From positions 13,793 to 77,792 of the forward strand of contig JBFLYZ010000008.1 of assembly GCA_040756415.1 (NCBI GenBank): a DNA stretch of 64,000 nt, in the 5' to 3' direction. This DNA comes from Bacteroidota bacterium (GTDB lineage Bacteria; Bacteroidota; Bacteroidia; JADZBD01). Shown here one piece after another: positions 4,213-64,000 of this stretch (position 1 is the first letter of the stretch; each line of letters opens with the position of its first letter). The notes beneath the pieces were generated by a model. That model did not search any database. It had not been told where the DNA came from and was given only the letters and a program-made list of their open reading frames with translations. Both the position numbers and the translations under genes were made by a program.

Positions 4213-4323
4213 CGCGTGCCCGGGCTCAAATCCTTAACATGTTTTTGTTGAAAAGATCATCTCCCGCGGCTGGTGGCTGAACCGGTCTATCGCCTATATT
4301 TGTTTCAGTCTATTTTACCAGTT

Positions 4324-4593
4324 ATGAGCCAAGCTACCAACCACTATTTACGCCAGGCCGGGATCGATACGGGAGGAGTAAGCATCAACGACCTGCGCGA
4401 AAGGGAATTCAACGGCAAAAGCCTTTCGGAACAGGAGAAAACAGCCCTGGCTAACTTTGACAGGTTCCGTATTGCCGAGCTGAACAAGCAGCCTGACGAT
4501 CTTTCTTTTCATAGGCGTTACCGCGAGCTGCAGGTTATGGCCAACCTGGGCAATTACGAGGAATTTCTCAAAGAAAAGTATAACACGATCTGA
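4324..4593 (+). CDS. Hypothetical small protein
   Basis: ORF 4273..4593. Start taken at the internal MSQATNHY (4324), which sits after a TAnnTTT-like box. No recognisable motif. Confidence 0.35.
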   Translation: MSQATNHYLRQAGIDTGGVSINDLREREFNGKSLSEQEKTALANFDRFRIAELNKQPDDLSFHRRYRELQVMANLGNYEEFLKEKYNTI

Positions 4594-4617
4594 GCGCGCA
4601 TAACCTGTGCCCGTAAA

Positions 4618-4652
4618 GCCAACCCCGTCAACCCAGGCGGGGCTTTTTATTT
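4618..4652 (+). terminator. Putative intrinsic terminator
   Basis: Short GC stem (ccccg...cgggg) followed by cttttta ttt. Confidence 0.45.
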
Positions 4653-4766
4653 GTACCAATGCAGGAGTCTGCTAACCAGGCTTTTAGCATTCCTGGTACG
4701 GATCAAGTCATCCCAGCCATTCGCTTAAGAAGCCAAAAAAGCCTAACTTTAAACACTATCTTTCCT

Positions 4767-12962: not shown

Positions 12963-13054
12963 AAATATCAGGGTTTGGTTTAAGCTTGGTTTAACACAGT
13001 CAAAATTGCTATAAATCTCGCAACCGGCCAAATTTAATTTGAAGGATTCTTACG

Positions 13055-13113: not shown

Positions 13114-14166
13114 TTAGTGCGCCACGCTGAACCTGCCCATGCCAAGGAAAGCACCGCTGGCAGCGCTCACGCGGAAGAAATAGATCCCTGCCGACAGCGT
13201 GGAAACATCGGCAGAAAGCAGGTCGCCAGTTACGCTGAGTGCAGCCACCACCTGGCCGGCAGCGTCAAGTATCTCCACTTTTTCGGCCTCCACTTTCGAG
13301 AGGTCGAAACGCACCTGGCCGCTGGCCGGGTTGGGAAACACAATGATGTTGTTGTAAACAGCCGGCTCGGAATAACCCCCCGGTGCAGGCGTGGCCTGCA
13401 GCCAGTTTACACCGTCAATGGTTCCGTCCAGGGCGCTGTCCATTTCAACAAGCGGAAAGCCTACCCCGTCAGCCCACCAGGCGAAATGATAGTTCGTGTC
13501 GGCATTTGCCTGCAGCATCTGCCATCCCGGAGGGAAGATGGCGTGCGCCCAGATGGTGTCGTATGTTCTCCGGTAATCTTTCTGGCGCAGGGACGGGAAC
13601 ATGCCCAGGGGAGTGGTAACATTGCCCCAGCCGTCTACCATGCAGGTTTTAATGGTCGTGCTCTTGATGCGGATGGAGTCGGCTCCCGGTATCTGGGTAA
13701 AGGGCATGGTGATGGTCACCACTGACGTGTTGTTGTACGTTGTATTGTAGGTGCTCGGGAACGCGATCATCTGGTCATCGGGATTAAACTCCGCGGCCAT
13801 TGGTCCCAGGCCGAAATCACCGTACTGACCCATGGCAAACAGGCCGTTGCTTTGATTGTTCAGGTAAGCGTAGGCGTTCTGCGATCCGAATTGAACGGCC
13901 AGGTTAGCCCCGGGGAAGGACGATCCGTATGGGGTCCAGTTCGGATTGGTGAAGAGCAGCGTGTCGACCACGTGTTGCTGCATAGCGGCCAGGTTCCAGC
14001 TTACATTGGCTCCAGAAGGGCCCGGGCCCACGGTAGGATTGGTGTCAGCGGCCTGCCTGATCACGGTATTCACTCCGGCAACATCCCACTGGTCGACCGT
14101 GATCTGGGCGAAGGAGGAGGCTCCGGCAAAAAGCATTGCGCTTAAAGTCAGTAAATGTTTTTTCAT
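13114..14166 (-). CDS. Hypothetical secreted protein with T9SS C-terminal sorting domain
   Basis: Signal peptide MKKHLLTLSAMLFAGASSFAQ. C-terminal …IIVFPNPASGQVRFDLS…AGIYFFRV… T9SS CTD. Confidence 0.7.
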   Translation of the reverse strand: MKKHLLTLSAMLFAGASSFAQITVDQWDVAGVNTVIRQAADTNPTVGPGPSGANVSWNLAAMQQHVVDTLLFTNPNWTPYGSSFPGANLAVQFGSQNAYAYLNNQSNGLFAMGQYGDFGLGPMAAEFNPDDQMIAFPSTYNTTYNNTSVVTITMPFTQIPGADSIRIKSTTIKTCMVDGWGNVTTPLGMFPSLRQKDYRRTYDTIWAHAIFPPGWQMLQANADTNYHFAWWADGVGFPLVEMDSALDGTIDGVNWLQATPAPGGYSEPAVYNNIIVFPNPASGQVRFDLSKVEAEKVEILDAAGQVVAALSVTGDLLSADVSTLSAGIYFFRVSAASGAFLGMGRFSVAH

Positions 14167-49866: not shown

Positions 49867-51192
49867 TTAGTCGAGCTTAAGAAACCGTGCCGGGACGCAC
49901 TTGCCCTCTGCATCGTAAACGCGCAGAAGGTAATACCCTTCAGCCAGCGGGCCGATATCGGCTTGCGTGTCTGGAGTACGGAGCAGTATCTTGCCGGTGA
50001 GGTCGGCAATCTCGATGCGGGCAATGCCGAAATCTGCCCTTACGGTCAGTTGATCGCTGGCCGGCACCGGATATATGCTGATCGTTCCGGGCGCACCGTA
50101 CAGCTCATTCGTGCCGGCCATGCTTGTAAATCCATAAAAGGTCTTCATGTACGAGTTCGAAAAATTATTCTGGTTCCTGAAGCCTACCACGGCATTGGCG
50201 TTATTGGGCACGGTATCGGTATAGAAATAAAAGTGAAAGACCTGCGTATCCAATGGCGCTATGGCGATAGTCACCGTATCGGTAGAGGTGCTGTAGCATA
50301 CGCTGGCGCACATGGAGCTGGCCCATCCGGGCGCCATGTTGTTCTGCAGGCGGCCCAGCTTAACGAGCACCGTGCCGGTAGCGCTGGTGTTGATGAGCTC
50401 CGCATCCACGGCAAGGGTGGCCCCGGGCTGACCGAACGCGGTATCCGAGGAGGTCATATTCAGGATGAACGAGCCATTGTAGTTGGGCGGATTGCAGTTG
50501 CCCGGAAGGCCGAGCAGCGAATCGATATCGCAGATGATGTTATCGGGGTAGCTGTCGTACCATCCGTGCTTGGAGAAGACGATGCCGCTGGTGTCGATCA
50601 GGTAGGCGTTGTTGGGCGCTGGCCCGTAATACAGCCACCAGTTGTTGCAGGGGCCATCTATGTAAACCGGGGCCTGCAGCGCGGTGTTGTTTTGCAGGTC
50701 GTTCACCACCTGCTTGCGCTGGCCGTAGGTGGCGGGCTGCTGGTACAGGATGCCGGCCGATTGGTTCGCTGACGTAATATTTACATAACCGAAATAGGGG
50801 CTGGTGTCGGTAGGGTGCGCTTCAACACAATAGATCACGGCTACCGTTACCTGCGATCCGTACGTATTAATCACATTATTGATCGAGCTGATCTTATTGC
50901 GGAACACGGGGCAGGTATAGCTTCCAGATACAAGCAATACCGGCTTGCCCTGCGACAGGGCATTGCCCAGGTTGAAGGCGTTCCCGCTATAGTCGTAGAG
51001 CGTAAAATCGGCAGCGGTATCGCCCGGCTGCAACCCGCTGCTGTAAAAGCTGCCCAGGTACCATGGAATGGGGCAGATGGAGGTGGAGTCGGCCGGCAGG
51101 CTGCCTATGCCTATGCTGGGCAGGAGGACCTGCGCGGTAAGGGGGAAAGGGGCGGTAGCCAGAAAAAAAAGCGGCAGTAGAATCCTGTTCAT
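49867..51192 (-). CDS. T9SS-secreted protein with putative thioredoxin-like N-domain
   Basis: Signal peptide. GKPVLLVSGSYTCPVF… resembles a thioredoxin-fold beta-strand plus Cys. C-terminal T9SS CTD (…ISIYPVPASDQLTVR…GYYLLRVYDAEGK…). Confidence 0.65.
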   Translation of the reverse strand: MNRILLPLFFLATAPFPLTAQVLLPSIGIGSLPADSTSICPIPWYLGSFYSSGLQPGDTAADFTLYDYSGNAFNLGNALSQGKPVLLVSGSYTCPVFRNKISSINNVINTYGSQVTVAVIYCVEAHPTDTSPYFGYVNITSANQSAGILYQQPATYGQRKQVVNDLQNNTALQAPVYIDGPCNNWWLYYGPAPNNAYLIDTSGIVFSKHGWYDSYPDNIICDIDSLLGLPGNCNPPNYNGSFILNMTSSDTAFGQPGATLAVDAELINTSATGTVLVKLGRLQNNMAPGWASSMCASVCYSTSTDTVTIAIAPLDTQVFHFYFYTDTVPNNANAVVGFRNQNNFSNSYMKTFYGFTSMAGTNELYGAPGTISIYPVPASDQLTVRADFGIARIEIADLTGKILLRTPDTQADIGPLAEGYYLLRVYDAEGKCVPARFLKLD

Positions 51193-51255: not shown

Positions 51256-52704
51256 TCACGATCCGGCAGCAGAAGCCTTGAGCTCAGCGATCTTCTCCTG
51301 CAGCCATTCCTTATGAATGGCGGTGGATGGGGCAAGGCTTTCTTCCAGCTTTCGCAGCTCAATGACATCGGGCCTGATGCGTATCGCGAGCAGTTTCTTT
51401 ACGCCATTCAGGAATGCCTTTTGGGCCCGCCTGGCCTCGGCCGAAACGGTATCGGTGTTCTTCAGCGCACGGCCGTAGGCATCCATCAGGTGATAGATGG
51501 CCTCATCCTCACCGGTTTCGTAAAACACCTTCAGCGTCCAGGCCTTGATATTCAGCTCCCTGGTCTGCGAGCCGTTGTGCGACTTGCTGAGATGGCGCAG
51601 CGCATCGCGGTAGTTCTTTTGCTCAAAGCAGAGCTGGGCGGTGCAGTAGCTTAACGTGCTTTCCCTCAGGTGAGGCTGAAGGTAGACCTGGTACCTGCTC
51701 ATGAAGCCGTCTATCCAATGGGTCTGCCCGCAAAGGATGCTGTGCACGACAACGTTGGTAAAGAAAATATGGGATATCACACCGTTCTGAAGGTAAATAT
51801 CGCGATGGAGCAGGGTGCGGTAAATATCGAGCGCATGAGCGGCAAAGGAGCGGTCACCGCTCGAGATCCGGTCCGAGCAATAATTGCTCATCACGATCAG
51901 GAACCCTTTCTGCTCCTCGGGGGCAATGCCGCTGAAGTTCTTATCGCAGAGGATGGTCTTAAGCCGGAAAAAGTACTCTTTTCCTTTTGTCATCATCATC
52001 TTGAGCGAAAGAAAATAAAGGTCGATGGGGATTGCCGGCCCGAGCAGTTTTTCCTTGAGGGCAACCAGGGTGGATTCGGCCTTCTCAAAATCGGTACGCT
52101 GGTTGAACTTCTGGGCCGTGTTCTCCCAGGATGCGTAGGCCGCCAGTACCTCGTACAGGTAAAAAGCGGTGAGAGACCGGATGATGTCCGAGCTGCGGTA
52201 ATGCCGTATCAACTGCTTGTCGTCACCAAAGTATTTATGGGTCAGGAAGCTGATCTCGCTCCGGTCCTGTACGAACTTTTCGTAGTGATAATTATCGCTG
52301 AAGGAGGTTGCTTCCAGGAGCCGCTTAGCCTCTTTCAGGCGCATGCTGTAAAGGCGGTGAAGCCCCCTTTTGTCCAGCTCGTCCAGCAGCCTGTTCTTTT
52401 TGAAAAGCTCTTTAGGTTCCAGCGAGGCCATCACCAGGTATTCCTCGGCCAGCGAAAGGGTCATGGAGGTAAGATCGCGTATGCGCTGTCCGTTGTAGGA
52501 TCGGCCCGGGAACAGGGCCGCAAATACTTTTTGCGGCTCCAGGCCGGCATGTTGGTATTTGGGATGGTACTTTTTCAGGTAAGCGGCAAATCTGCGCACG
52601 TTCAGGTTCTTGTTAAAGTAGGGCGAGTTCACCAGCTCGCAGAACCTGCGTATATCCCTGGCGGAAAAGGTCTTCAGGACCTGTACGAGCTTAGAAGATT
52701 GCAT
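51256..52704 (-). CDS. Hypothetical cytoplasmic alpha-helical protein (482 aa)
   Basis: No signal peptide, no recognisable catalytic motif, helical composition. Divergently oriented from the giant adhesin gene. Confidence 0.5.
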   Translation of the reverse strand: MQSSKLVQVLKTFSARDIRRFCELVNSPYFNKNLNVRRFAAYLKKYHPKYQHAGLEPQKVFAALFPGRSYNGQRIRDLTSMTLSLAEEYLVMASLEPKELFKKNRLLDELDKRGLHRLYSMRLKEAKRLLEATSFSDNYHYEKFVQDRSEISFLTHKYFGDDKQLIRHYRSSDIIRSLTAFYLYEVLAAYASWENTAQKFNQRTDFEKAESTLVALKEKLLGPAIPIDLYFLSLKMMMTKGKEYFFRLKTILCDKNFSGIAPEEQKGFLIVMSNYCSDRISSGDRSFAAHALDIYRTLLHRDIYLQNGVISHIFFTNVVVHSILCGQTHWIDGFMSRYQVYLQPHLRESTLSYCTAQLCFEQKNYRDALRHLSKSHNGSQTRELNIKAWTLKVFYETGEDEAIYHLMDAYGRALKNTDTVSAEARRAQKAFLNGVKKLLAIRIRPDVIELRKLEESLAPSTAIHKEWLQEKIAELKASAAGS

Positions 52705-52953
52705 TTAAAAAATATCCACAAATAATATTGCTATTGAAAAATATCTGTAAATGTAACTTATACAGTATCGGATTGAAAAGACTTAAAAATCATCCACAAA
52801 TGTAACTTTTTTTCTTTGCCTTTCTGTTGCCTTATACCTTCCTTTACCTGGCTGCCCGGCCGTGCTGAAAAAGTTGATAAAAGCCGGTGCCGCCCTGGTG
52901 ATCTTCACTGTAATTTTTTATAATATTGCGTTTCGTTAATAACCCCCTGTATC
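52705..52953. promoter_or_regulatory. AT-rich divergent intergenic region with direct repeats
   Basis: AAAAAT(C)ATCCACAAAT occurs twice (52707, 52785). AAATGTAACTT occurs twice (52749, 52798). Confidence 0.45.
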
Positions 52954-55900
52954 ATGAACAAACACATTCTCTTTTTTGCCGGCCTGCTTGGTCTTCTTTT
53001 CAGCGTGAACATGAAGGCGCAGACGCCCACCATCGGGGCATCCAATATCCAGTTCACTTCCATCGGCACCACTTCGCTGGGACTTACCTGGACAAGAGGC
53101 AATGGCCAGTATTGCCTGGTCGTGTGCCGGCCCAGTACCAGCGGGGCCGCCCTGCCGTCCAACGGCTCCAACTACGCGGCCAGCTCCACCTTCGGCTCGG
53201 GCAGCAACCTGGGTTCCAGCAATTACGTGGTGTATGAGGGAACAGGGGCCTCCATGACCATTTTCGGGCTGACCTCGTATGTTCAGTATACGGTAACGAT
53301 CTTCGAATTCAATATCGATGGCTTCGGCTTCGAATGGTATAAGACCAATGTCTATCCCTCGGCCAGCCATTATACCCTTGCGGCTTCGCCTACTACGGCC
53401 CCTTCGGGTCTTACGGCATACAGCTTCGGTTCCAACTACGCTTATTTTTCCTGGACACCGGGCAACGGCACCTATTCCATCCTTGGAATGCGCCAATCCA
53501 CCGCCCTGTCAGGTTCGCCCGCTGACGGTACGGATTACGCCTATTCCGGCTGCCACGGTTCCGGGGGATCCTGGGGCACCGCCTCACCGTATACCTACGA
53601 TGTTTATGACGGCACCGGCTCGACCGGCATCTATACCTACTGCCTGAGCCCGCAAACCAACTACGCTGTTTCAGTTTATACCTTCAACGGGCTTTATGGC
53701 GGAAATAATTATTATTCCATTCCGGCCTCGGAGTATTTCACTACGCTCTCCACCGAACCCACTTCTGCCTGCAATTGGCTTTATATTACGGATATTACGG
53801 ATAACGCGTTTACCATCAACTGGATGAAACCATCCGGGTCGGGCTCCAACTCGCTGGTAACCGTAAAGGCCGGCAGCACCAATACCAACCTGCCAAGCGA
53901 CATGAGCGTGTATACCGCCAACAGCGTCTTCGGAAGCGGTTCGCAGATCGGTTCCGGTGCCTATGTGGTCTACAATTCGAGCGGGAACTCAGTGCGTGTA
54001 ACAGGTCTTACCACCGGAACGGTGTATACTGTTGCCGTGTTCGAATGGAACGGCATTGTAGGCACTTTCAACAATACGCATAATTACCTGACCTCTTCTT
54101 ACCAGACCCAAACCACGCAGACCAACGATCCCGAGCCGACCACCATACCTTCAGGTCTTACGCTCACACCTTCGTCCACCTCCGTTACGGCCACCTGGAC
54201 CAACGGCAACGGCAACAAGCGTATTGCGCTGGTCAAGCCCACCCGTGTCAGGACCGCCATGGCATTCGATGGCACGAACGATTATGTTTCGGTTCCGTAC
54301 AATTCCCTTCTGCAACCCCCGAGCTATGTGACGGTAGAGGCTTGGGCCTATAAGAGCAACTGGGCTTCCTCGGTAGGCTGGCAAACCATTGCAGGCAACC
54401 AGGAGGGCACTGGCGGGTATCAGCTTTTCCTCTTTAATAACTATGCTTACGGGTACGCTTATCGCAACGGCTCTTCGGGCGCGGTGTACAACGATATTTC
54501 CTACCTGACCCCCGGCTGGCATCATTTTGCCCTGGTGTTCGATGGCCGGTATACCTACCTGTATGTGGACGGGGCGCGTAAGGATGAATACGATTCGGGA
54601 GCCAACTACTCCATGCAATACGCCTATGCCAACAGTTTCATCATTGGCGCTGATGCGGGTACAGGCACAACGCCTACCGGCAATTATTTCAATGGTTATC
54701 TCGATGAGGTACGCGTGTGGAACACGGCCAGGACCTATTCGGAGATCCGGAGCAATATGTATACCTCCCTTTATGGAAATGAAACGGGCCTGATCGCTGA
54801 ATGGAAAATGGATGAGGGCTATGCAAGCACTTCCACGGTGGCAAACAATTCGATCAATTATACCCTGCTGAACGGCACCATGAACAATATGACGACCACG
54901 GCCGCCAGTTCGTTTACCGGAACGAGCGGGTGGATCCTTTCGGGCTCGGGTGTGAACGAACCGGTGGATTTTACGATGTATGGCGCCAATTCGGTATTCA
55001 TGAACGGGGCGCAAGTGGGCAACCAGTATTATGCCGTTTACAACAGCACGGGCACCTCGGTGACCGTTACCGGCCTGACCCCAGGCACTTATTACAATTT
55101 CGCGCTCTTTGAGTTCAACTCTACGCTGTACAATAATTTCAAGACAGACGATTACCTCACCCAGGATTTCCAGACCATAGCAGCTCCCATACCTACCATT
55201 ACCTCGTTCTCGCCACTCAATGGCGGGCTGGGTACGGTGGTAACCATAACCGGTACCAACTTTGACGGGACCACACCATCCAATAATATTGTTTATTTCG
55301 GCACCGAGCGGGCCACGGTAGTGGCTTCTACGGCTACAACGGTAACGGCTATTGTACCTTATTGTACGAACAATCCACCTATTTCGGTTACGGTGAATTC
55401 CCTCACTGCTTACAGCAACAAGCCCTTTGTTGTCACCTCATCATGCAACTCGGCTATTTCAACAGGCTCGTTCACTGCGGGAACCACTACTGGCGGCAGT
55501 TCGCGGCAGGGAACCGCATCGGCCGATATGGACCTTGACGGCAAGGCCGACCTGCTGTTCACCGACCCCGGTTTCGGAGCGTTCTACATTACCAAGAATA
55601 CGAGCACCAACGGTACGCTCACCTGGGGCACCACCTCCGGGTGGGCGGTCAGCAACCCGTGCGAGATCGAAGTGGCCGACCTGGACGGGGACAACAAGCT
55701 GGACCCAATTATCGTTTCATCGCTCAACGACCGTATAACAACCTACCGCAACATCAGCACCAGCTCGTTCAACATGTCGGGCAAGCTGGATTTCGCCACC
55801 CTTGCAGGCCCCAGTGATATTTCGGTGGCCGATATAGATAAGGACGGCAAGCCGGATATTCTGGTGTCCTATTCATCGGGCACCAGCTTCACGGTATTCC

Positions 55901-58900
55901 GCAATACCAGCTCTATCGGCTATATCAGTTTCGCCCGGGTGGATATTTCGGGCGTGAACAGCCCCCGCTCGGTCAGGGCGGCCGATATTGACGGTGACGG
56001 TAAGGCCGATGTTATAGTGGGTAACGGAGGAGCCAGCAATTTTACCGCTTTCCGTAACCTGAGCACGCCTGGCAATATCTCGTTCGCGGCAGGGGTGAAC
56101 GTGACCACTTCCGCGAGCGTCAATGACATATCGCTTGCCGATATGGATAACGATGGCAAGGTGGATGTGATCGCAGGCCTTACCACTACCACCATCAGCG
56201 TGATACGTAACAACAACGTATCGGGCAATATCAGCTCCGGCCTGTTCACTACTTCGGCCAATGTGACCGCGCTTTACAGCTCGCCCTATACCGAAGTATA
56301 TGACCTGGATGGAGATACCCGCCACGATATTGTAGCGGGCTATATGGCCTATCCGACCATTTCGGTGTTCGAACACACCTCTAATTTTGTTTTTGCCGCG
56401 CGCGTTGACCTTACCGGCAGCAGCTCCGGATCGGCCTGGCTGAGCATCAATGACTTCAGCCTTGACGGCAAATCCGATATCGTAGCGGCTACAGGCGGCA
56501 CCACCATCAGCACGCTTAATAACGTGATGACCCCGCTCGACCTGGAGCCGACCACGCAGGCCAGCAACATTACTTTTTCAGCCATTACCCAAACCTCCAT
56601 GACGGTTAACTTTACCGCGGGCAGCGGTTCCGACCGGATCGTGATCGCGCGGCAGGGCTCACCGGTCACCTTTGTTCCTTTTGACGGGGTGAACTATGTG
56701 CCTAACTCCTCGTTCGGCTCGGGAGCCGACCTGGGTGGCGGACAATACGTAGTGTTCAACTCCAACACTTCTTCAGCCCCCGTAACCAACCTGTTATCCA
56801 ACACACAGTATTATTTCGCTATTTATGAGTATAACGGCAGTAGTTGCGATTACAATTACCTGACCACCACGGTGGCCTCCAATAGCGCCACTACGCTCAA
56901 CACCCCGCCTACGCTGGCCGCCATCAGCAATCCCGCGGCCATTTGCCAGAACGCAGGACAGCAGACCGTTAACCTGACCGGCATAGGCAGCGGGGCTGTT
57001 AACGAAGTGCAAACGCTGAGCGTAACGGCCACTTCCAACAACCAGACACTTATCCCGAACGGCAACATCTCGGTGACCTACACCAGCCCCAGCACCACGG
57101 GCAGCGTTTCGTATACTCCTGCCAACGGGCAGTCGGGTACTGCTATCATTACCGTGACCGTAAACGATAACGCATCAAACAATAACACCAGCCAGCAAAC
57201 CTTTACGGTGACGGTGAATGCTCCGCCTACAACCGCAGCGGCCGGGCCTAACCAGAACATCTGCCTTTCATCCACCGCACTGGCTGCCAACACCCCAGCG
57301 GTAGGAACAGGCACATGGTCCTTTATTTATACTTCGAACGGTGCCATCACCATCGCCAATGTGAATTCTCCTACCTCAGCCATCAGCAACTTCAACGTGG
57401 GCGATTCGGTACGGCTGCAATGGACCATCAGCAACGCGCCCTGCGCCAGTTCCACTTCGCAGGTGAGCATCAAACGAGGCAACTGCCCGCTCGATGCCAA
57501 CTTCTCGGCTAACCAGACCAGCTTCTGCGGCACTTCGGCCAATGTTACATTTACCGATGCCTCCACCGCCCAGTCGACCACCATTACACAGTGGTCGTGG
57601 TCCTTCCCGGGCGGAACACCGGCAACGGTGGTAAATGCCACCAACGCCCCAGTGAATGTAAGCTATACCGCCCCCGGGTCGTATCATGCGTACCTTACCA
57701 TTACGGATAACACGGCTTCTACCAACACTGAAACGCGGCTTAATTACATCAACATCACGGCCCTGCCATCCAATCCCGGCAATAATATCAGCGGCAGCGC
57801 CAGCGTTTGCCAGGGCCAGACCAGCGTGAACTATTCGGTGACCGCCATCACTGGTGCCACCAGCTATTCGTGGGCTGTGCCTTCGGGAGCAACGATCACT
57901 TCCGGGCAGGGCACCCAGAATATCGTAGTGGATTATGGACCTACGGCCACTACCGGCAACGTAACCGTAGTGGGTGTGAACAGTTGCGGAAACAGCCTAA
58001 ACACCAGCTTCTTTATCGTAACGGTGAACCCGCTGCCCGGAAGCACCCCAGTCATCACCGGCCCGTCAAGCGTTTGCCAGGGGCAGAACAACGTGAGCTT
58101 CTCGGTAGCTTCCATCAGCAACGCCACGGGATACAGTTGGGTGGTGCCGCCTGGCGCAACCATCATCAGCGGCAACAATACCAACTCCATTACGGTGAAC
58201 TTCTCCGGCTCAGCCGTGAGCGGAACGGTGAATGTGTTCGGCACCAACAGTTGCGGAACAGGAAGCTCGGCTAACGGGTATACGCTTACGGTCAACCCCC
58301 TGCCGGATGCGGCAGGAGCAATTACCGGAAGCGTTGCGGTTTGCCAGGGCGATACGGTGGTGTACAGCATCACGCAATTGGGCAATACCAGTTCTTATAA
58401 CTGGAGCGTTCCTACCGGAGCCACCATCATATCGGGTAATAATACCAATAGCGTTACCGTTTCCTTCGGTCTCAGTGCCGTATCCGGTACTATCAGCGTG
58501 AATGGCGTGAATGCCTGCGGTAACGGAGCTTCTTCATCTGTATCGGTAACTGTAAATCCGCTTCCCGGCAATGCCACCAGCATAGTAGGCTCAACTACCG
58601 TTTGCGCGGGCGATAACAGCGAGATCTACTTTGTTTCGGCCATTACGAACGCGGTTAACTACAGTTGGACCCTGCCCCCGGGCTTCAGCATTGTGACCGG
58701 TAATAACACGAATGCCGTACAGATCAGCATCTCGCCCGTTGCCCAGTCAGGTACGATCAGCGTTTACGGCTCCAACTCCTGCGGTGACGGGGCTTCGTCC
58801 AGCATAAGCGTTACGGTCAACCCGCTGCCCGATTCGGCAGGCGTGATCACCGGTGCCGACACGGTGTGCCAGGGCCAGACGGGAGTTATCTATACCGTTC

Positions 58901-60246
58901 CCGTAATTGCCAATGCCACGGGTTACAACTGGAACCTGCCTCCGGGTGCGAGCATCGTAGCAGGCAGCAATACCAACAGCATTACGGTCGATTACTCTAT
59001 CACCGCCCAGTCGGGCTATGTTACGGTTACGGGCACCAACACTTGCGGTGACGGATTGACCACCGACAGCCTGGCCATACTGGTCAATCCGCTGCCCGGG
59101 GCCGCGGGCGTGATCGTGGGCGACAGCTCCATACAGATCTGCCCGATGCAGACCGGGGTGATCTACACTATTCCCGCTGTGGCTAACGCCACATCCTATA
59201 GCTGGACCCTGCCCAGTGGTGCCAGCATCGTAAGCGGCAACAATACGAATACGATCACCGTGGATTACCAGACCGGTGCGCAATCGGGCCCCATTACCGT
59301 TACACCCGTGAACGGCTGCGGAACAGGCGCTACCTCCACTTCTTTTATCAGCGTGGATTCGGTACAGGGCGTAAGCGTGTGCATGGTTACGGTGGATTCG
59401 GCTTCGGCCTATAACCGCGTGGTGTGGGATAAGCCGGTGACCACGCAGATCGATTCATTCCGCATTTACCGCGAAATATCCAGCAACTTTGTGCAGATCG
59501 ATGCGGTGCCTTACAGCGCCTACAGCGTTTATGTAGATTCCGTCTATACGCCACTGGCCAATCCCAACAATACGAACTACCGGTACAAGATATCGGCTGT
59601 CGATGCCTGCGGCAACGAAAGCGTGCTGAGCGAATACCACCGCACCATCTTCCTGCAGGCCAACCAGGGAGTTGGAAACGTGGTCAACCTGAGCTGGATC
59701 ACCTACGAGGGTAATACCGTTAACCAGTATTACATTTACCGCGATACCACCGGCACCGGCAACCTCGACCTGATCGATTCCGTTCCGGGAAGCAATACGG
59801 TGTTCACCGACAACAATCCTTCGCAGAACATGACCACGCTGCGTTATGTGCTGGGTGTCGACTGGACCGTGAACTGCAATCCTACGCTGAAAGTGATAGA
59901 GGACAATAATATCCTGGCCGCGATCAACACCTCGCATTCCAATATCAAGAACCTGGTCTACGTGCCCAGCGGGGTAGGCGATGCCGGGGCGGCTTACGGC
60001 CTGAGCATTTACCCGAACCCGAACAGCGGCTTGTTTACTATTACACTCAAAGACCTGAACGTGACCGGTTGCGCGGTGACTGTTTACGATGAGCTGGGCC
60101 AGTTGGTATACGCAGAGAACCTTTCTGACGGGCAGAACGGCTGGATCAGCTCTACGCTTGACCTTACGCGTCTGGCCAAAGGAGTTTACAGCGTGCGCGT
60201 GGAGATCGATGGCAGGCAGGCGGTAAGAAAGCTGGTCATACAGTAG
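52954..60246 (+). CDS. Giant T9SS-secreted multi-domain adhesin-like protein (FN3-like, LamG, IPT/TIG, FG-GAP, PKD and PKD-like repeats, T9SS CTD)
   Basis: 2430 aa. Signal peptide. FN3-like modules. LamG/ConA-like (…FDGTNDYVSVPYNSL…FDGRYTYLYVDGARKDEY…). IPT (…PTITSFSPLNGGLGTVVTITGTNF…). About 7 FG-GAP repeats (DLDGKADLLF, DIDGDGKADVIVG, DMDNDGKVDVIAG). PKD. At least 6 repeats of about 85 aa (…VCQGQ…YSW…P.GA.I.SGNNTN.ITV…CG.G). C-terminal T9SS CTD (…LSIYPNPNSGLFTITL…GVYSVRVEIDGRQ…). Confidence 0.85.
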   Translation: MNKHILFFAGLLGLLFSVNMKAQTPTIGASNIQFTSIGTTSLGLTWTRGNGQYCLVVCRPSTSGAALPSNGSNYAASSTFGSGSNLGSSNYVVYEGTGASMTIFGLTSYVQYTVTIFEFNIDGFGFEWYKTNVYPSASHYTLAASPTTAPSGLTAYSFGSNYAYFSWTPGNGTYSILGMRQSTALSGSPADGTDYAYSGCHGSGGSWGTASPYTYDVYDGTGSTGIYTYCLSPQTNYAVSVYTFNGLYGGNNYYSIPASEYFTTLSTEPTSACNWLYITDITDNAFTINWMKPSGSGSNSLVTVKAGSTNTNLPSDMSVYTANSVFGSGSQIGSGAYVVYNSSGNSVRVTGLTTGTVYTVAVFEWNGIVGTFNNTHNYLTSSYQTQTTQTNDPEPTTIPSGLTLTPSSTSVTATWTNGNGNKRIALVKPTRVRTAMAFDGTNDYVSVPYNSLLQPPSYVTVEAWAYKSNWASSVGWQTIAGNQEGTGGYQLFLFNNYAYGYAYRNGSSGAVYNDISYLTPGWHHFALVFDGRYTYLYVDGARKDEYDSGANYSMQYAYANSFIIGADAGTGTTPTGNYFNGYLDEVRVWNTARTYSEIRSNMYTSLYGNETGLIAEWKMDEGYASTSTVANNSINYTLLNGTMNNMTTTAASSFTGTSGWILSGSGVNEPVDFTMYGANSVFMNGAQVGNQYYAVYNSTGTSVTVTGLTPGTYYNFALFEFNSTLYNNFKTDDYLTQDFQTIAAPIPTITSFSPLNGGLGTVVTITGTNFDGTTPSNNIVYFGTERATVVASTATTVTAIVPYCTNNPPISVTVNSLTAYSNKPFVVTSSCNSAISTGSFTAGTTTGGSSRQGTASADMDLDGKADLLFTDPGFGAFYITKNTSTNGTLTWGTTSGWAVSNPCEIEVADLDGDNKLDPIIVSSLNDRITTYRNISTSSFNMSGKLDFATLAGPSDISVADIDKDGKPDILVSYSSGTSFTVFRNTSSIGYISFARVDISGVNSPRSVRAADIDGDGKADVIVGNGGASNFTAFRNLSTPGNISFAAGVNVTTSASVNDISLADMDNDGKVDVIAGLTTTTISVIRNNNVSGNISSGLFTTSANVTALYSSPYTEVYDLDGDTRHDIVAGYMAYPTISVFEHTSNFVFAARVDLTGSSSGSAWLSINDFSLDGKSDIVAATGGTTISTLNNVMTPLDLEPTTQASNITFSAITQTSMTVNFTAGSGSDRIVIARQGSPVTFVPFDGVNYVPNSSFGSGADLGGGQYVVFNSNTSSAPVTNLLSNTQYYFAIYEYNGSSCDYNYLTTTVASNSATTLNTPPTLAAISNPAAICQNAGQQTVNLTGIGSGAVNEVQTLSVTATSNNQTLIPNGNISVTYTSPSTTGSVSYTPANGQSGTAIITVTVNDNASNNNTSQQTFTVTVNAPPTTAAAGPNQNICLSSTALAANTPAVGTGTWSFIYTSNGAITIANVNSPTSAISNFNVGDSVRLQWTISNAPCASSTSQVSIKRGNCPLDANFSANQTSFCGTSANVTFTDASTAQSTTITQWSWSFPGGTPATVVNATNAPVNVSYTAPGSYHAYLTITDNTASTNTETRLNYINITALPSNPGNNISGSASVCQGQTSVNYSVTAITGATSYSWAVPSGATITSGQGTQNIVVDYGPTATTGNVTVVGVNSCGNSLNTSFFIVTVNPLPGSTPVITGPSSVCQGQNNVSFSVASISNATGYSWVVPPGATIISGNNTNSITVNFSGSAVSGTVNVFGTNSCGTGSSANGYTLTVNPLPDAAGAITGSVAVCQGDTVVYSITQLGNTSSYNWSVPTGATIISGNNTNSVTVSFGLSAVSGTISVNGVNACGNGASSSVSVTVNPLPGNATSIVGSTTVCAGDNSEIYFVSAITNAVNYSWTLPPGFSIVTGNNTNAVQISISPVAQSGTISVYGSNSCGDGASSSISVTVNPLPDSAGVITGADTVCQGQTGVIYTVPVIANATGYNWNLPPGASIVAGSNTNSITVDYSITAQSGYVTVTGTNTCGDGLTTDSLAILVNPLPGAAGVIVGDSSIQICPMQTGVIYTIPAVANATSYSWTLPSGASIVSGNNTNTITVDYQTGAQSGPITVTPVNGCGTGATSTSFISVDSVQGVSVCMVTVDSASAYNRVVWDKPVTTQIDSFRIYREISSNFVQIDAVPYSAYSVYVDSVYTPLANPNNTNYRYKISAVDACGNESVLSEYHRTIFLQANQGVGNVVNLSWITYEGNTVNQYYIYRDTTGTGNLDLIDSVPGSNTVFTDNNPSQNMTTLRYVLGVDWTVNCNPTLKVIEDNNILAAINTSHSNIKNLVYVPSGVGDAGAAYGLSIYPNPNSGLFTITLKDLNVTGCAVTVYDELGQLVYAENLSDGQNGWISSTLDLTRLAKGVYSVRVEIDGRQAVRKLVIQ
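57750..59350 (+). repeat. Tandem ~255-270-nt coding repeats (PKD-like 85-aa modules) inside the giant gene
   Basis: Units begin near 57751, 58027, 58283, 58543, 58816 and 59082, each with AACCCGCTGCCCGG-like starts. Confidence 0.7.
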
Positions 60247-60268
60247 AATATCCGCATTGGTGTTACAA

Positions 60269-60300
60269 GGAAGCCCCGGTACGGGGCTTCTTTTTTTTCT
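60269..60300 (+). terminator. Intrinsic terminator after the giant gene
   Basis: GAAGCCCCGgtacGGGGCTTCttttttttt. Confidence 0.85.
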
Positions 60301-60342
60301 AGAATTATATCCCTACTTTTGGTATCACTTTAAAACACCCCT

Positions 60343-63300
60343 ATGAAACATCTCTACTCCCTTGCGGCCATTGGATTGTTCGCCTGCAACACTTTGCTTT
60401 TCGGACAGGTCAGCGTCAGCCCCCAAAACTCTTCCGGCTGCGCACCGCATATGGTTAACTTCTTATGCACGGCACCCGGGGCCACCTATTACATCTGGTA
60501 TTTTGATGATGGCCCTCAAACCGGGTTCACCACCAATAACGTGATGCCCCATACGTTTGGCCCGCGCATGGTGCCCTATAACGGATGGGTATCAGCTTAC
60601 GATGCTTCCTACATGTTCCTGGGACAGGCTGCTTTTTTTATTAATGTGAACGGTGCGGAGGATTCGCTGACCACCACTAACTACAATCCCTGCCCTGGCG
60701 ATATGGTGGTTTTTGATATTGGCGGAACAACCAATCCATCGAATATCGACTGGGATTTCGGGGACGGATCGCAGCTTAACAATGTTCCTTATTATGGCGT
60801 ACAGCACATTTATACATCACCGGGCACCTATTATCCCCGTGCCGTGGTGACAACCGGCTGCGGAACCGATACGCTGTGGCAGGTGGTTAACGTAAGCACT
60901 TCAGGGGTATTCCCCCCCTTTGTAAACACCTATATTCCTGTAGACAGCCTTTGCCCTGGCGACCCATTTACCGTCTATCCCCATTATATGTATCCCAATT
61001 ATGTGATCGATTGGGGGGATGGTAATTTTTCCACAGCACAAAACGCCCATGTGTACAATGCCCCGGGCAGTTACCTGGTCAAGGTAACTTACATCAACGG
61101 CTGCGGAAATACGCTTACGCAATCGGGAATAGCCACGGTGGCCAACAACCTGCCCATCAGCACTGTCCCCTTCATCGATATCTATCCCGATTCGGCCTGC
61201 ATCAATAGCAACGTGACCTTTTATCCGTACCCCGAGGCCTACGCCAGCTTCTCGTGGAATTTCGGGCCCAATGATAATGCGCTTACCAAAGTGGCCATTC
61301 GGCAGTTCACCAGTACAGGCGATAAGCCGGTAACGCTAACCGTCACCAATGGATGCGGCTATTCGGCAACAGCATATGATACGGTACGTATCGTGAGCAA
61401 TATTCCCATACCTCCCGGAGGACTGAACGTGTTCCCGCCTACTATTTGCCCGGGCGGTGCGGTGATGACCGAAGGCAATGTAAGCATGGGTGATGACAGG
61501 GACTACCTGTTTAGCTGGGATTACGGTGACGGCAATACCGGCACCGGCCGGCAGACCACGCACAGCTACGCTTCCGCGGGGTCATATACGATCACGCTCA
61601 CCATATCCAATGCCTGCGGCAACGCCCAAACGTATACAGCCCCCGTTACCGTGGCCACTAACGTTCAGCCCGATTCTGCGCAGTTCCTGTTCGGGCCCGT
61701 GCCATTCCAGCAGGCTTCTGTGCCGGGTTGTATTGGCGACAGCATGGTGTTCATCTTTGCTCCCGTCAGCTCTGCGGATTCCGTCATCTGGGATTTCGGT
61801 GATATGAGCAGCGGCATTGCAACGCAGGAGATCACCGTGGAAGGCGGCACCTACCGCATCATCAAGCATATGTATACCTCCAATGGAACGTTCTATCCGC
61901 GGGTTACATATAAGAATACCTGCGGCAATTCGTTCACAGCCTATCCGCCCAACTCGGTCACCATAGGCAGCAATTATTCTATCGAAGAGACCAACATATT
62001 CTTTGATGAGGCTGCCTACCATTGCCAGGGCAAAGATGTGACCTTTTATTCCTACGGAGGCAGCTATTACATCTGGAACTTCGGTGACGGAACGGGCGAT
62101 TTCATCAGCTATAATACGCTCGTGCCCATGAACCATGCCTTTCAGAACGCAGGGCAGTATACGGTCACCTGCAGGGTAACCAACGGGTGCGGCTATTCGG
62201 TTACCGACAGCGTGATGATCACCATTCCGGTCTCTGAGATCAACATCAATACCAACACGGTAAGCGCTTCCTGTGGCGTGAACAACGGCACGGCCATCGC
62301 GATCGGTAACGGGGGAGCGACCCCTTATACCTATCAATGGTCGAACGGTAACAGTACGTTCATGGCCGATAGCCTGGCATCGGGTATTTATGTGGTTACC
62401 ATCACCGATGTGCATGGCTGCTCGAACTTTGCCATCGCTACGGTAAGCGACCAGCAGGCCCCGGCCATCGCGGTAAGTACCGTGATCGATGTATCGTGTT
62501 ATGGAGGTAACAACGGAGCCATTGATATTAATCCCATAGGCAGCAGCGCTCCCTATACTTACCTCTGGTCGAACGGGGCCACCACGCAGGATATCAACCA
62601 ACTGGTAGCCGGCCCTTACGAGGTAGAGGTGACTGATGCCAACGGTTGCAAGTCCACGAAAAGCGTTATGGTGGGCCAGCCGCCCGAAGTGGTGCTGTCT
62701 ACCCTGAGCGGACTGGCCACCTGCGGAAACAGCGATGGCAGCGCTGGTGTTGCTGTTGGCGGTACCACGGGCCCGTATAATTATATCTGGTCGAATGGCG
62801 CAACTACACAAACCATTTATGGCCTGCAGGCGGGCATCTATACCGTAACCGTGGTCGATAACAACGGATGCATCTATTCGCAGAATGTGGCGGTCAATAA
62901 CCAGAATGCGCCCATTATCGTTGTCGACTCCATTACCGGAACGGGCTGCTCCAACAGCCTGGCAAGTGTGTATGTGCGTACGATCAACGGCGCCAACCCG
63001 CTTTCTTATTCCTGGTCGAATGGGGCAACCACCCAGGACCTGCTGAACGTGCCTGTAGGCATGTATACGCTTAAGGTGACCGATGCCAACGGCTGCAAAT
63101 CGTTCAGGCAGGTCACCATCGCCAAGGATGAGCCGGCCGGCACTGCCCTTTGTATAGTTACCGTGGATACGGTGACCGGGTTCAATAAAGTAGTGTGGAA
63201 CGAGGATACAAGCGCTACCGATATTGCCGGGTTCAACATTTACAAGGAAAGCACGCTCAGCGGCTTGTATTACCAGGTGGGATATGTGGATTTCGACAGC

Positions 63301-64000
63301 GCCAGCATATGGGTCGACAGCCTTTCTGATTCGCGTGTGCGTTCGTGGAGGTATAAAGTGGCCGTAGTGGACAATTGCGGCAACGAGTCGGCATGGAGCG
63401 GTGAGCACAAGACCATACACCTGAACGTGAACGTAGGGATCAACAACTCGTACAACCTGATCTGGGACCATTACGAAGGGTTCAGCTTCAGCACCTATGA
63501 GATCTATCGTTACTCCCAGGCCAACGGCTGGCAGTACCTAGGCAACGTTCCCAGCAATATTATGTCGTATACGGACCTCAATCCGCCCGTGAACACCATT
63601 GCCTACATGGTTGACGCGGTGCCTTCGTTCACCTGTAATGATAATGCCCGCTATGCAAGCGGAGCTGGAGTGCTGGCTGCAATCAACACCTCGCATTCCA
63701 ATATCAAGAACCTGGTAGCTACGGGACCTGGCGGGGAGGAAGAAAGCATCGTGGCCACAGATTTCAACCTGTATCCCAATCCTTCTTCCGGCAGTGTCGG
63801 TCTGTCTTATCCCTCAAGCGATGACGGGTATACGATCACGGTCTATAACGCCATAGGCGAGATCATATTCAGCTCGGTGATCGCTCCGGGCGATGCGCGC
63901 ATGGCGATCAACCAGAAGACCATCGACCTGAAGGGCCTGGCCAAAGGCATCTATACCATAGGCATTTCCAATAAGAACGGCAGCGTGTACAAAAAGCTCG
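60343..64000 (+). CDS. Second giant T9SS-secreted protein (PKD domains x~7, SprB repeats x~5, FN3-like, C-terminal module). It is partial and continues beyond the window.
   Basis: Signal peptide MKHLYSLAAIGLFA. Repeated …WDFGDG… PKD motifs. SprB-type repeats (…GIYVVTITDVHGC…, …GPYEVEVTDANGCKS…, …GIYTVTVVDNNGC…, …GMYTLKVTDANGCKS…). C-terminal …AINTSHSNIKNLV…LYPNPSSG… matches the preceding gene. The ORF is open at 64000. Confidence 0.8.
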   Translation, partial: MKHLYSLAAIGLFACNTLLFGQVSVSPQNSSGCAPHMVNFLCTAPGATYYIWYFDDGPQTGFTTNNVMPHTFGPRMVPYNGWVSAYDASYMFLGQAAFFINVNGAEDSLTTTNYNPCPGDMVVFDIGGTTNPSNIDWDFGDGSQLNNVPYYGVQHIYTSPGTYYPRAVVTTGCGTDTLWQVVNVSTSGVFPPFVNTYIPVDSLCPGDPFTVYPHYMYPNYVIDWGDGNFSTAQNAHVYNAPGSYLVKVTYINGCGNTLTQSGIATVANNLPISTVPFIDIYPDSACINSNVTFYPYPEAYASFSWNFGPNDNALTKVAIRQFTSTGDKPVTLTVTNGCGYSATAYDTVRIVSNIPIPPGGLNVFPPTICPGGAVMTEGNVSMGDDRDYLFSWDYGDGNTGTGRQTTHSYASAGSYTITLTISNACGNAQTYTAPVTVATNVQPDSAQFLFGPVPFQQASVPGCIGDSMVFIFAPVSSADSVIWDFGDMSSGIATQEITVEGGTYRIIKHMYTSNGTFYPRVTYKNTCGNSFTAYPPNSVTIGSNYSIEETNIFFDEAAYHCQGKDVTFYSYGGSYYIWNFGDGTGDFISYNTLVPMNHAFQNAGQYTVTCRVTNGCGYSVTDSVMITIPVSEININTNTVSASCGVNNGTAIAIGNGGATPYTYQWSNGNSTFMADSLASGIYVVTITDVHGCSNFAIATVSDQQAPAIAVSTVIDVSCYGGNNGAIDINPIGSSAPYTYLWSNGATTQDINQLVAGPYEVEVTDANGCKSTKSVMVGQPPEVVLSTLSGLATCGNSDGSAGVAVGGTTGPYNYIWSNGATTQTIYGLQAGIYTVTVVDNNGCIYSQNVAVNNQNAPIIVVDSITGTGCSNSLASVYVRTINGANPLSYSWSNGATTQDLLNVPVGMYTLKVTDANGCKSFRQVTIAKDEPAGTALCIVTVDTVTGFNKVVWNEDTSATDIAGFNIYKESTLSGLYYQVGYVDFDSASIWVDSLSDSRVRSWRYKVAVVDNCGNESAWSGEHKTIHLNVNVGINNSYNLIWDHYEGFSFSTYEIYRYSQANGWQYLGNVPSNIMSYTDLNPPVNTIAYMVDAVPSFTCNDNARYASGAGVLAAINTSHSNIKNLVATGPGGEEESIVATDFNLYPNPSSGSVGLSYPSSDDGYTITVYNAIGEIIFSSVIAPGDARMAINQKTIDLKGLAKGIYTIGISNKNGSVYKKL
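62230..63130 (+). repeat. Tandem SprB-type coding repeats (~258 nt each)
   Basis: Repeated Y(T/N)Y.WSNG.(T/S)TQ…Y.V.V.D.NGC protein modules. Confidence 0.65.

Follow-up and report, generated by a model that had tools for sequence, protein, structure and literature searches.

A giant T9SS surface protein with a predicted calcium-binding head and a stalk of conserved repeat number in an uncultured lineage of Bacteroidia

The giant gene and its neighbours

The gene described here occupies positions 52954-60246 of a 64,000-nucleotide stretch of Bacteroidota DNA (the window), where a single intact, ATG-initiated open reading frame on the forward strand encodes a protein of 2,430 aa. The product has a mass of approximately 242 kDa and a very acidic composition in which Thr, Ser, Asn, and Gly are abundant. 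Its Sec-type signal peptide reads MNKHILFFAGLLGLLFSVNMKAQ / TP in the translation and is poorly conserved among orthologues. A lipoprotein anchor was rejected because this signal peptide contains no Cys, and a pseudogene was likewise rejected in view of the intact frame and of orthologues of full length. Overall, the protein is not enriched in the Bacteroidota O-glycosylation sequon D[ST][AILVMT] (10 observed against 10.3 expected). The domains of the giant protein and the adjoining features are listed in Table 1.

Table 1. Features of the giant gene and of the sequence downstream of it, in window coordinates
Feature	Residues (aa)	Position	Strand	Basis
Sec signal peptide, no lipobox Cys	1-22	52954..53019	+	Read directly from translation
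Three long FN3-like domains	23-145, 146-268, 269-392	53020..54129	+	Pfam fn3; mutual alignment
Fourth FN3-like domain, with LamG/ConA-like jelly roll (436-665) inserted in a loop (simplest reading)	393-435 + 666-740	54130..55173	+	
IPT/TIG domain	741-830	55174..55443	+	Pfam TIG, 48 bits vs cut-off 20.9
FG-GAP/VCBS beta-propeller, predicted seven-bladed	831-1214	55444..56595	+	FG-GAP_3, FG-GAP, seven DxDxDGxxD motifs
Stalk start: fifth long FN3-like domain, Big_9-like Ig, unassigned Ig-like module, PKD	1215-1335, 1336-1424, 1425-1512, 1513-1604	56596..57765	+	
Six PKD_6 modules (87-91 aa, 261-273 nt each)	1605-2137	57766..59364	+	PKD_6, 359 bits in 6 stretches
Two FN3-fold domains plus linker, no Pfam match	2138-2320, 2321-2351	59365..60006	+	AF2, Foldseek
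Type A T9SS C-terminal sorting domain plus stop codon	2352-2430	60007..60246	+	Por_Secre_tail, TIGR04183
Intrinsic-terminator-like hairpin followed by T run		60267..60293	+	12-pair stem, 7 GC pairs, then TTTTTT
Partner gene: PKD/SprB-repeat T9SS protein, continues beyond window	at least 1,219	60343..64000	+	Translation

The partner gene ends in the same tail of two FN3 domains and a sorting domain as the giant protein, and over its C-terminal 300 aa, sorting domain included, the giant protein shares 35% identity with the C-terminal end of the partner. In L001, L004, and L025 the gene next to the giant one is 47-52% identical to this partner, and on the P0003 contig both genes are found in the same order. 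From the gene order on that contig and in L025, a Reg_prop/Y_Y_Y-SpoIIE gene of about 1,060 aa would be expected immediately downstream of the partner. Other flanks of the giant gene are occupied by a 482-aa protein without a Pfam match, a thioredoxin-like CTD protein, and a TPR-SpoIIE protein. No PorP/OmpA-type match was found among the flanking genes in a scan that was not exhaustive for small ORFs, and no T6SS genes were found among the window ORFs scanned.

Assignment of the C-terminal sorting domain to type A is supported by two profiles, Por_Secre_tail (PF18962; 46.3 bits against a cut-off of 27, aa 2352-2429) and TIGR04183 (44.4 bits against a cut-off of 23, at the extreme C-terminus). 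For a type B domain, by comparison, CHU_C (PF13585) reached 18 bits, which is under its cut-off of 27, and no type B NCBIfam model matched. Five other ORFs within the 64-kb window carry a CTD, which implies a working T9SS; genes for the T9SS machinery itself were not seen within the window.

Domain architecture of the head and stalk

Almost every domain call made in an earlier note on this DNA, which described a multidomain T9SS substrate, holds in the order given there when examined with Pfam, TIGR04183, and AF2/Foldseek. The exception lies near the N-terminus, where the note had listed four FN3-like domains, a LamG domain, and one further FN3. The first three of these FN3-like domains stand: each contains the conserved loop Y.A.S.FG.GS..G...YVVY.G.G, and Pfam fn3 scores for units 1, 2, and 3 are 26.2, 19.5, and 25.4 bits, respectively, of which those of units 1 and 3 (about 25-30) are above the curated cut-off. 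The fourth FN3 and the one placed after LamG appear instead to be the two parts of a single domain. Once the LamG block is removed, the 43 aa before it (aa 393-435) and the 75 aa after it (aa 666-740) join into 118 aa whose alignment with the 121-124-aa units spans their full length. Since the halves flanking LamG align to complete FN3-like units, the simplest reading, indicated by alignment, predicted secondary structure, and model pTM, is one FN3-like domain with a LamG insertion.

The inserted LamG domain is itself well supported (Laminin_G_3, 69-74 bits, cut-off 27.6), as the earlier note had proposed. An AF2 model of the LamG-containing segment (pLDDT 85.7, pTM 0.81) places strands on both sides of the LamG block, and in Foldseek searches the predicted structure resembles lectin-type and ligand-binding jelly rolls, including the PAPP-A LG domain, pentraxins, and BoNT Hcn (E 1e-7 to 1e-9), as well as BACOVA_03559 (E 5.5e-11).

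The TIG domain is followed by the FG-GAP region, for which the same note had counted about seven blades. Both FG-GAP_3 (96-115 bits in six stretches) and FG-GAP (58-83 bits in four stretches) score above their Pfam cut-offs, and seven DxDxDGxxD calcium-loop motifs start at aa 858, 909, 960, 1011, 1063, 1117, and 1167. Their spacing of 50-54 aa fits seven propeller blades, so that a seven-bladed propeller is predicted from repeats and motif spacing; many of the Asp positions in these motifs are invariant across 34 aligned orthologues. Failure of domain searches to back the FG-GAP or LamG calls, which the note had named as a refuting outcome, did not occur.

When the head (aa 393-1214) was used as a query, 5,300 cluster representatives were reached at E<=1e-30, and nearly all of the best 150 match it over the TIG-propeller portion, a unit that recurs across thousands of giant bacterial proteins. 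Of these 150, only 4 match the head collinearly over its whole length, and they belong to this family or to close variants of it. The earlier description of the protein as an unusually rich mosaic is only partly supported. The architecture is not a recent mosaic, being collinear in 34 aligned orthologues with identity down to 44%, and its parts are commonplace.

The C-terminal half may be described as a spacer of twelve beta-sandwich domains, comprising one FN3, two Ig-like domains, one PKD, six PKD_6 modules, and two further FN3 domains. At its start the fn3 and Big_9 matches are weak and the PKD/PKD_4 match (36 bits) is above cut-off, and aa 1336-1424 constitute the most conserved segment of the protein, with a mean orthologue identity to the reference of 69%. 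The PKD_6 array (PF19408) scores 359 bits in six stretches, above the curated Pfam cut-off. Two Cys are present in every PKD_6 module, and most of these are invariant across 34 orthologues. The following Pfam-silent region (aa 2136-2351) is modelled by AF2 as tandem FN3 folds at a pLDDT of 82, and its top Foldseek matches are the FN3 arrays of contactin, fibronectin, and gp130.

Repeat number in the PKD_6 array

The location and the period of the repeat region proposed in the earlier note are accurate. The modules had, however, also been called near-identical, nucleotide-level tandem repeats and a substrate for length variation, and neither of these claims survives comparison of the units. Unit boundaries and identities were obtained by explicit unit extraction and pairwise comparison, which gave 40-60% aa identity and 47-61% nt identity between modules, with a longest exact DNA word common to the units of 14 nt; Tandem Repeats Finder at default score reported no array in 52000-61000.

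Conservation across the family is consistent with this divergence. All 21 full-length orthologues (46-100% identity) carry six PKD_6 modules, at total lengths of 2,421-2,462 aa. In a sister clade there are four modules in 13 members and three in one more; the difference corresponds to two gaps, each as long as one unit (86-87 aa). Individual units share 55-59% identity with their positional counterparts in other species versus 45-52% with their neighbours in the same protein, and therefore show no concerted evolution; no internal pair of units exceeds 65% identity in any family member. Within most 90% clusters the full-length members are equal in length, with no difference of the size of a repeat unit. 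The one cluster member that is 164 aa shorter is truncated at its N-terminus and aligns over 2,262 residues at 94% identity with 0 gaps. All carriers of the family are metagenome-assembled genomes. An assembly artefact, which the note had named as a refuting condition, was rejected for the repeats because the units are diverged and independent assemblies give an equal count.

An adhesin of variable length, in which the PKD-like array expands and contracts between isolates by slippage or recombination, would be suggested by six tandem units of similar length and by the gain or loss of whole units over deep time, as seen in the sister clade and its three-unit member. Against this stand the low DNA identity between units, the absence of long exact words common to them and of a TRF array, the invariant count among the orthologues, the positional orthology of the units, a top within-protein identity of 65% family-wide, and 90% clusters whose members either are of equal length or differ by amounts that are not repeat-unit-sized. 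At the resolution of these comparisons such variation is contradicted, and we consider it extremely improbable. As judged from sequence comparison, the six PKD_6 modules are ancient, diverged, and individually conserved structural units rather than a variable tract, and the collinear architecture, together with the fixed length across 21 orthologues, suggests that selection has acted on overall geometry. The family thereby offers a clean case of repeat number kept constant over deep divergence in a surface protein, the opposite of what is usually expected of adhesin tandem repeats.

Proposed function and comparison with known systems

Giant T9SS surface proteins govern attachment, gliding, and aggregation in Bacteroidota, and prey capture in Aureispira, and very few of them have been studied. 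In the protein described here, all the domains that could be assigned are folds used for binding or as spacers; Pfam and NCBIfam profiles identified no catalytic family, and an enzymatic cargo was rejected on this basis. We think it probable, if by no means certain, that the protein presents a non-enzymatic, calcium-binding head on a stalk of fixed length at the cell surface. The N-terminal half, with its four long FN3-like domains (one bearing the lectin-fold LamG insert), TIG domain, and calcium-loop propeller, would form the ligand-binding head, and the stalk would keep it at a fixed distance from the membrane. Adhesion is the function that this arrangement suggests, presumably in a calcium-dependent manner, and the ligand may be a glycan, or else some structure on the surface of another cell or of a particle. 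By analogy with studied species, in which proteins with a type A sorting domain are linked covalently to anionic LPS (PMC9143113), anchoring at the surface would follow removal of the sorting domain and proceed through the same kind of attachment. A literature search on T9SS with FG-GAP, adhesin, or PKD returned nothing relevant. The result leaves current understanding unchanged; it mainly corrects the idea of a variable repeat and refines the annotation.

Several other readings share part of this evidence. The protein could be shed after T9SS export and act in soluble form, either contributing to the matrix of a biofilm or aggregate or scavenging substrates by binding them. Its very acidic, Thr/Ser/Asn/Gly-rich composition, like that of many extracellular matrix proteins, is in keeping with release, and some type A cargo is indeed released to the medium instead of being anchored (PMC10202324). 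A long spacer of conserved length, however, is easiest to understand in a protein tethered to the cell at one end, and type A sorting domains are the class known to be linked to surface anionic LPS (PMC9143113), which makes release unlikely. A different possibility is a miniature appendage resembling GhpA of Aureispira sp. CCB-QB1 (PDB 9flp), in which copies of the protein would stand side by side through their PKD_6 stalks as a rigid fibre of fixed length with a multivalent propeller/LamG tip that captures other cells or particles, perhaps jointly with the PKD/SprB partner. Among sequence relatives GhpA alone has been solved; it matches through its stalk repeats (E 1.2e-88), and its hooks are uniform in length on a stem of disulfide-bearing Ig-like repeats; the strictly conserved repeat number and total length seen here, the two mostly invariant Cys per unit, and a co-inherited partner gene with the same C-terminal module could be read in the same way. 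This appendage is nonetheless quite doubtful, given six stem modules against 52, the lack of a significant match to the GhpA hook region, a type A sorting domain with no PorP/PorE-like neighbour where GhpA adjoins ghpB/ghpC, and the absence of T6SS genes among the window ORFs scanned.

An extended version of the appendage, which we offer as speculation and to which we give little credence, would make the giant protein the shaft and tip of a hitherto unseen surface structure of fixed length in an uncultured lineage of soil and groundwater Bacteroidia. Related to the Aureispira grappling hook but short, this structure would bear a propeller/LamG tip that is integrin-like and calcium-dependent. 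It would be assembled with or beside the PKD/SprB partner and deployed under the control of a Y_Y_Y-SpoIIE sensor phosphatase, the gene of which stays linked to the giant gene through several gene-order rearrangements. Linkage to the partner T9SS protein and to the sensor phosphatase yields a testable regulatory hypothesis; a search of the literature on partner-switching by Bacteroidetes PP2C/Y_Y_Y proteins found nothing relevant. A mobile adhesin of the SprB/RemA type, moved over the cell surface by the gliding apparatus, would likewise be a large T9SS substrate of Ig-like repeats, and both the SprB-type repeats of the neighbouring gene and the repeat types common to GhpA, SprB, and the giant protein could be cited for it. 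It is highly improbable, however, as the sorting domain passes the type A and fails the type B profiles, no PorP/SprF-like gene is adjacent, and the protein is far smaller than SprB (2,430 aa versus about 6,500 aa).

Type A CTD cargo includes surface-anchored proteins of Porphyromonas gingivalis and RemA-like lectin adhesins of Flavobacterium. The giant protein resembles this class in its N-terminal signal peptide, modular beta-sandwich body, and TIGR04183/PF18962 domain at the extreme C-terminus, and differs from it in a domain set and order which, among the matches listed, are found by sequence only in this uncultured lineage. It is an ordinary kind of T9SS surface protein, assembled from commonplace parts. 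With the head of integrin alpha-subunits and with bacterial FG-GAP (VCBS) beta-propeller proteins it has in common seven FG-GAP repeats with DxDxDGxxD calcium-loop motifs. The likeness to an integrin goes no further than the repeat family: an I-domain insert, the thigh and calf legs, a beta-subunit partner, and a transmembrane segment are all absent. SprB of Flavobacterium johnsoniae is similarly a giant T9SS substrate of Ig-like repeats, of a type that the neighbour of the giant gene also carries. In SprB the sorting domain is of type B, and SprF serves as its PorP-like partner, features in which the giant protein and its surroundings do not follow it.

GhpA and the giant protein each begin with a Sec signal peptide and a binding head, continue through a stem of PKD_6-type Ig-like repeats (approximately 85-90 aa, Cys conserved), and end in a T9SS sorting domain. 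In a phmmer comparison the whole-protein E-value of 1.2e-88 is accompanied by a best stretch of 62 bits, and aa 1551-2137 of the query match GhpA residues 1150-4754 in multiple stretches. In the GhpA hook module (residues 26-1402), stem-repeat matches set in from about residue 1150; otherwise this region contains only negative-scoring, non-significant stretches, none of which involves the query head, and the hook does not match the FN3/LamG/TIG/propeller head. GhpA is, moreover, a protein of 5,898 aa that forms heptamers and adjoins PorP/PorE homologues, unlike anything found beside the giant gene. The repeats of GhpA form a rigid, disulfide-braced stem of about 240 nm from about 52 repeats (10.1101/2024.01.29.577165), of which the giant protein falls well short, with six PKD_6 modules and about 12 beta-sandwich domains in its whole stalk. 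Homology to the solved GhpA provides a structural template for that stalk.

Reading frame and domain layout of the giant protein

The giant gene is a single, uninterrupted ORF on the plus strand (52954-60246) that starts with ATG and encodes 2,430 aa. Its translation opens with MNKHILFFAGLLGLLFSVNMKAQ, a typical Sec signal peptide without a lipobox cysteine, and closes with a T9SS sorting domain; the mature protein has a computed mass of ~242 kDa and a pI of 4.3. These two ends, the terminal hairpin, a GC content near that of the window (55% versus 54%), the shadow ORFs and an identical protein in NCBI (MEW6467999.1, [quoted passage not shown]) show that the gene is complete and real, and the earlier note was mostly correct about it. 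The many 88-287-aa ORFs on the minus strand inside it (52905-59937, e.g. 54151-55014) are in all likelihood shadow ORFs rather than genes, the giant gene being long and moderately high in GC.

Features of the giant gene, its protein and their surroundings (nt, window positions; aa, giant-protein positions)
Feature	Position	Strand	Score or remark
Por_Secre_tail ORF	nt 9823-11916	-	
Por_Secre_tail ORF	nt 12018-13031	-	
Por_Secre_tail ORF	nt 13114-14166	-	
TPR-SpoIIE protein	nt 47698-49851	-	nearest SpoIIE in window; three genes upstream of giant gene
Por_Secre_tail ORF	nt 49867-51192	-	
482-aa ORF, no Pfam family	nt 51256-52704	-	directly upstream of giant gene, divergent
GC-rich 12-bp hairpin + T run	nt 60267-60293		3' of giant gene
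Partner gene, PKD/SprB-repeat T9SS protein	nt 60343 to beyond 64000	+	at least 1,219 aa; runs past window end
fn3	aa 23-145 and 269-392		above cut-off
fn3-like	aa 146-268		weak match
Putative LamG-in-FN3 composite region	nt 54130-55173	+	
Laminin_G_3	aa 439-598		69-74 bits
TIG + FG-GAP-propeller block	nt 55174-56595 (aa 741-1214)		very common supermodule
TIG	aa ~747-825		48 bits
FG-GAP_3 / FG-GAP	aa 831-1214		115 / 83 bits
Big_9	aa 1349-1420		weak match
PKD / PKD_4	aa 1527-1594		36 bits
PKD_6, six stretches	aa 1605-2137		359 bits
Por_Secre_tail / TIGR04183 (type A)	aa 2352-2430		46 / 44 bits

The whole protein and ten of its sub-segments were scanned against Pfam and NCBIfam; these scans, together with motifs and Foldseek matches, bear out essentially all of the domains listed in the earlier note, including FG-GAP and LamG, for which a domain search had been named beforehand as the refuting test. 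Seven DxDxDGxxD motifs (aa 858, 909, 960, 1011, 1063, 1117 and 1167), 50-54 aa apart, fit in number and spacing a predicted seven-bladed calcium-binding propeller. The type B sorting-domain model CHU_C scored 18 bits on the protein, under its cut-off of 27. The sole stretch without a Pfam match, aa 2136-2351, was modelled together with the sorting domain (pLDDT 82; alignment of 19 sequences) and matched tandem FN3 arrays of contactin, fibronectin and gp130 in Foldseek.

The order proposed for the N-terminal half (four FN3, LamG, FN3) has the right domains but needs revision around LamG. An FN3-like unit of this protein spans 121-124 aa, more than either flank of LamG provides (43 aa at aa 393-435, 75 aa at aa 666-740). 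Placed together, the flanks total 118 aa and can be aligned over their full length with the other four long FN3-like units. For aa 393-745, AF2 gave a model (pLDDT 85.7, pTM 0.81; 18 aligned sequences) that runs from three strands through a jelly roll to four further strands, the jelly roll matching the PAPP-A LG domain, pentraxins, botulinum Hcn and a Bacteroides putative carbohydrate-binding protein in Foldseek. Together, the high pTM, the alignment and the secondary structure suggest that LamG is inserted in one of the loops of the fourth FN3-like domain, the two short flanks being one domain split by it. The variant proteins P0037-P0039 carry two tandem copies of the composite unit (aa 249-589 and 611-961 in P0038). 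Bacteroidales "LamG-like jellyroll" proteins of ~1,860 aa carry a block of LamG and the FN3 C-half at their N-terminus.

Age of the assembly and constancy of the repeats

This architecture is no recent mosaic: 34 orthologues can be aligned collinearly, with few gaps, and every domain is 41-69% identical to the window protein. The carriers, of which about twenty turned up when each GTDB species was scanned through one genome, are all MAGs labelled Bacteroidia or Bacteroidota, with no cultured isolate among them. At E<=1e-30, an exhaustive HMMER search with the head (aa 393-1214) yielded 5,300 50%-cluster representatives. Among the best 150, almost all matched over the TIG and propeller block, many of them proteins of 2,000-7,400 aa that matched in many separate stretches; only four of these 150, all from the giant-protein family or close variants, matched the entire head collinearly. 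The parts are thus commonplace, and their specific assembly is confined to one lineage.

The earlier note was also right about the location and period of the tandem repeats, which form six units at 57766-59364 with a period of 261-273 nt, and took them to be near-identical and a substrate for length variation by recombination or slippage. Pairwise, however, the units reach a protein identity of only 40-60% and a DNA identity of 47-61%, no two of them have an exact DNA word longer than 14 nt in common, and Tandem Repeats Finder reported nothing on the repeat region. Each unit holds two cysteines 58-59 residues apart, most of them invariant across the aligned orthologues.

Length variation by recombination or slippage is contradicted at every available resolution. 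A database search returned 20 further full-length orthologues (46-66% identity, 99-100% coverage), and all 21 proteins of this six-repeat clade are 2,421-2,462 aa long, with exactly six units in 21 of 21 when counted with an HMM built from the window protein's units. Members of the sister clade (~2,257-2,286 aa) have four units in 13 cases and three in one more, and the difference from the six-repeat clade consists of two gaps, each as long as a unit (86-87 aa); whole units have therefore been gained or lost, though only over deep evolutionary time. Units at the same position are 55-59% identical across species, compared with 44-50% for other positions and 45-52% for neighbours within a protein, so there is no concerted evolution. 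No internal pair in any family member exceeds 65%. Within clusters at >=90% identity, full-length members are equal or nearly equal in length (two of 2431 aa; 2444, 2443, 2444 and 2444; six of 2267; two each of 2440, 2263 and 2266). A single cluster member falls short by 164 aa because it is truncated at the N-terminus (0 gaps over 2,262 residues, 94% identity), and length gaps of 34 and 8 aa in two other such clusters are not of repeat-unit size. The possibility that the repeats are an assembly artefact is excluded by the comparative data.

The Bacteroidota O-glycosylation sequon D[ST][AILVMT] matches at ten sites, every one of them in the stalk half (57400-59780, aa 1484-2275) and none in the head; their total is not above expectation, and the sequon at aa 2275-2277 is kept across orthologues.

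A partner gene and a sensor phosphatase

The partner gene, next after the giant gene, codes for a protein with PKD-like repeats and "YxWSNG" repeats of the SprB type. The last 300 aa of this protein, made up of two FN3 folds, a linker with the motif LAAINTSHSNIKNL and a sorting domain, share 35% identity with the giant protein's tail. Partner orthologues (47-52% identity) adjoin the giant gene in four other loci (L001, L004, L025 and the P0003 contig). A ~1,060-aa sensor phosphatase (Reg_prop/Y_Y_Y + SpoIIE) lies near the giant gene in most adequately flanked loci of the six-repeat clade (nine counted): directly upstream and divergent in L002/L003, L005, L006, L008 and L009, directly downstream in L004, two genes downstream in L001, and behind the partner gene in both L025 and the P0003 contig. 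Since the window has the giant gene followed by the partner gene, such a phosphatase is predicted just past position 64000. Linkage is much weaker in the four-repeat clade, with a full-length phosphatase within 10 kb in one of ~10 loci and, in two, partial matches to Y_Y_Y close to the end of the locus. The arrangement hints at a possible functional coupling of the giant gene with partner and phosphatase.

Remaining neighbours vary from locus to locus. The 482-aa ORF has a relative (31% identity) in L021, upstream of the 66%-identical giant-gene orthologue and oriented like that giant gene, and is unrelated to the ~520-aa proteins without Pfam match upstream in L001 and L004. Four more Por_Secre_tail ORFs, among them a CotH-kinase and proprotein-convertase P-domain protein and a thioredoxin/deiodinase-like protein, make the 64-kb window dense in T9SS cargo.

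Proposed function and comparison with GhpA

The giant protein combines a Sec signal and a type A sorting domain with binding or spacer folds only and a strictly conserved geometry, and its description as a multidomain T9SS adhesin-like protein stands. Type A T9SS cargo in studied species has its sorting domain removed and is fixed to the surface (PMC9143113). By analogy, the giant protein would be exported, lose its sorting domain and become fixed to the cell surface. Its N-terminal FN3/LamG/TIG/propeller half may then bind a ligand, with calcium probably held in the seven propeller loops. An Ig-like domain typically measures ~4 nm, so the twelve beta-sandwich domains of aa 1215-2320 could form a fixed-length spacer of roughly 50 nm. 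The lectin-like LamG and the free-living origin of the carriers (soil, groundwater and freshwater, as MAG names suggest) point to glycans, or surfaces of other cells or particles, as candidate ligands. The protein is an uncharacterised but conventional member of a large T9SS surface-protein family, noteworthy for its fixed repeat number, LamG apparently inserted in an FN3-like domain, GhpA-homologous stalk and conserved partner and sensor neighbourhood.

The only strong match in a sequence search of the entire PDB was the Aureispira grappling-hook protein GhpA (9flp; 5,898 aa; E 1.2e-88), many stretches of aa 1551-2137 aligning to its stem (~1150-4754) and aa 1388-1575 matching its base more weakly. 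In GhpA, a Sec signal peptide and an N-terminal adhesin-like hook are combined with a stem of 52 Ig-like repeats that is disulfide-braced and O-glycan-decorated, and with a T9SS sorting domain; its hooks are heptameric and a uniform 240 nm, and its gene adjoins PorP and PorE homologues (10.1101/2024.01.29.577165). Both proteins combine a head, a repeat stalk of the same family and a T9SS signal. The giant protein differs in its head, in having six repeats as against 52 and in its type A sorting domain, and its gene is without a PorP/PorE-type neighbour in the window, whereas ghpA has both. In its overall logic the giant protein resembles a short version of GhpA's protein class; it is not a GhpA orthologue.
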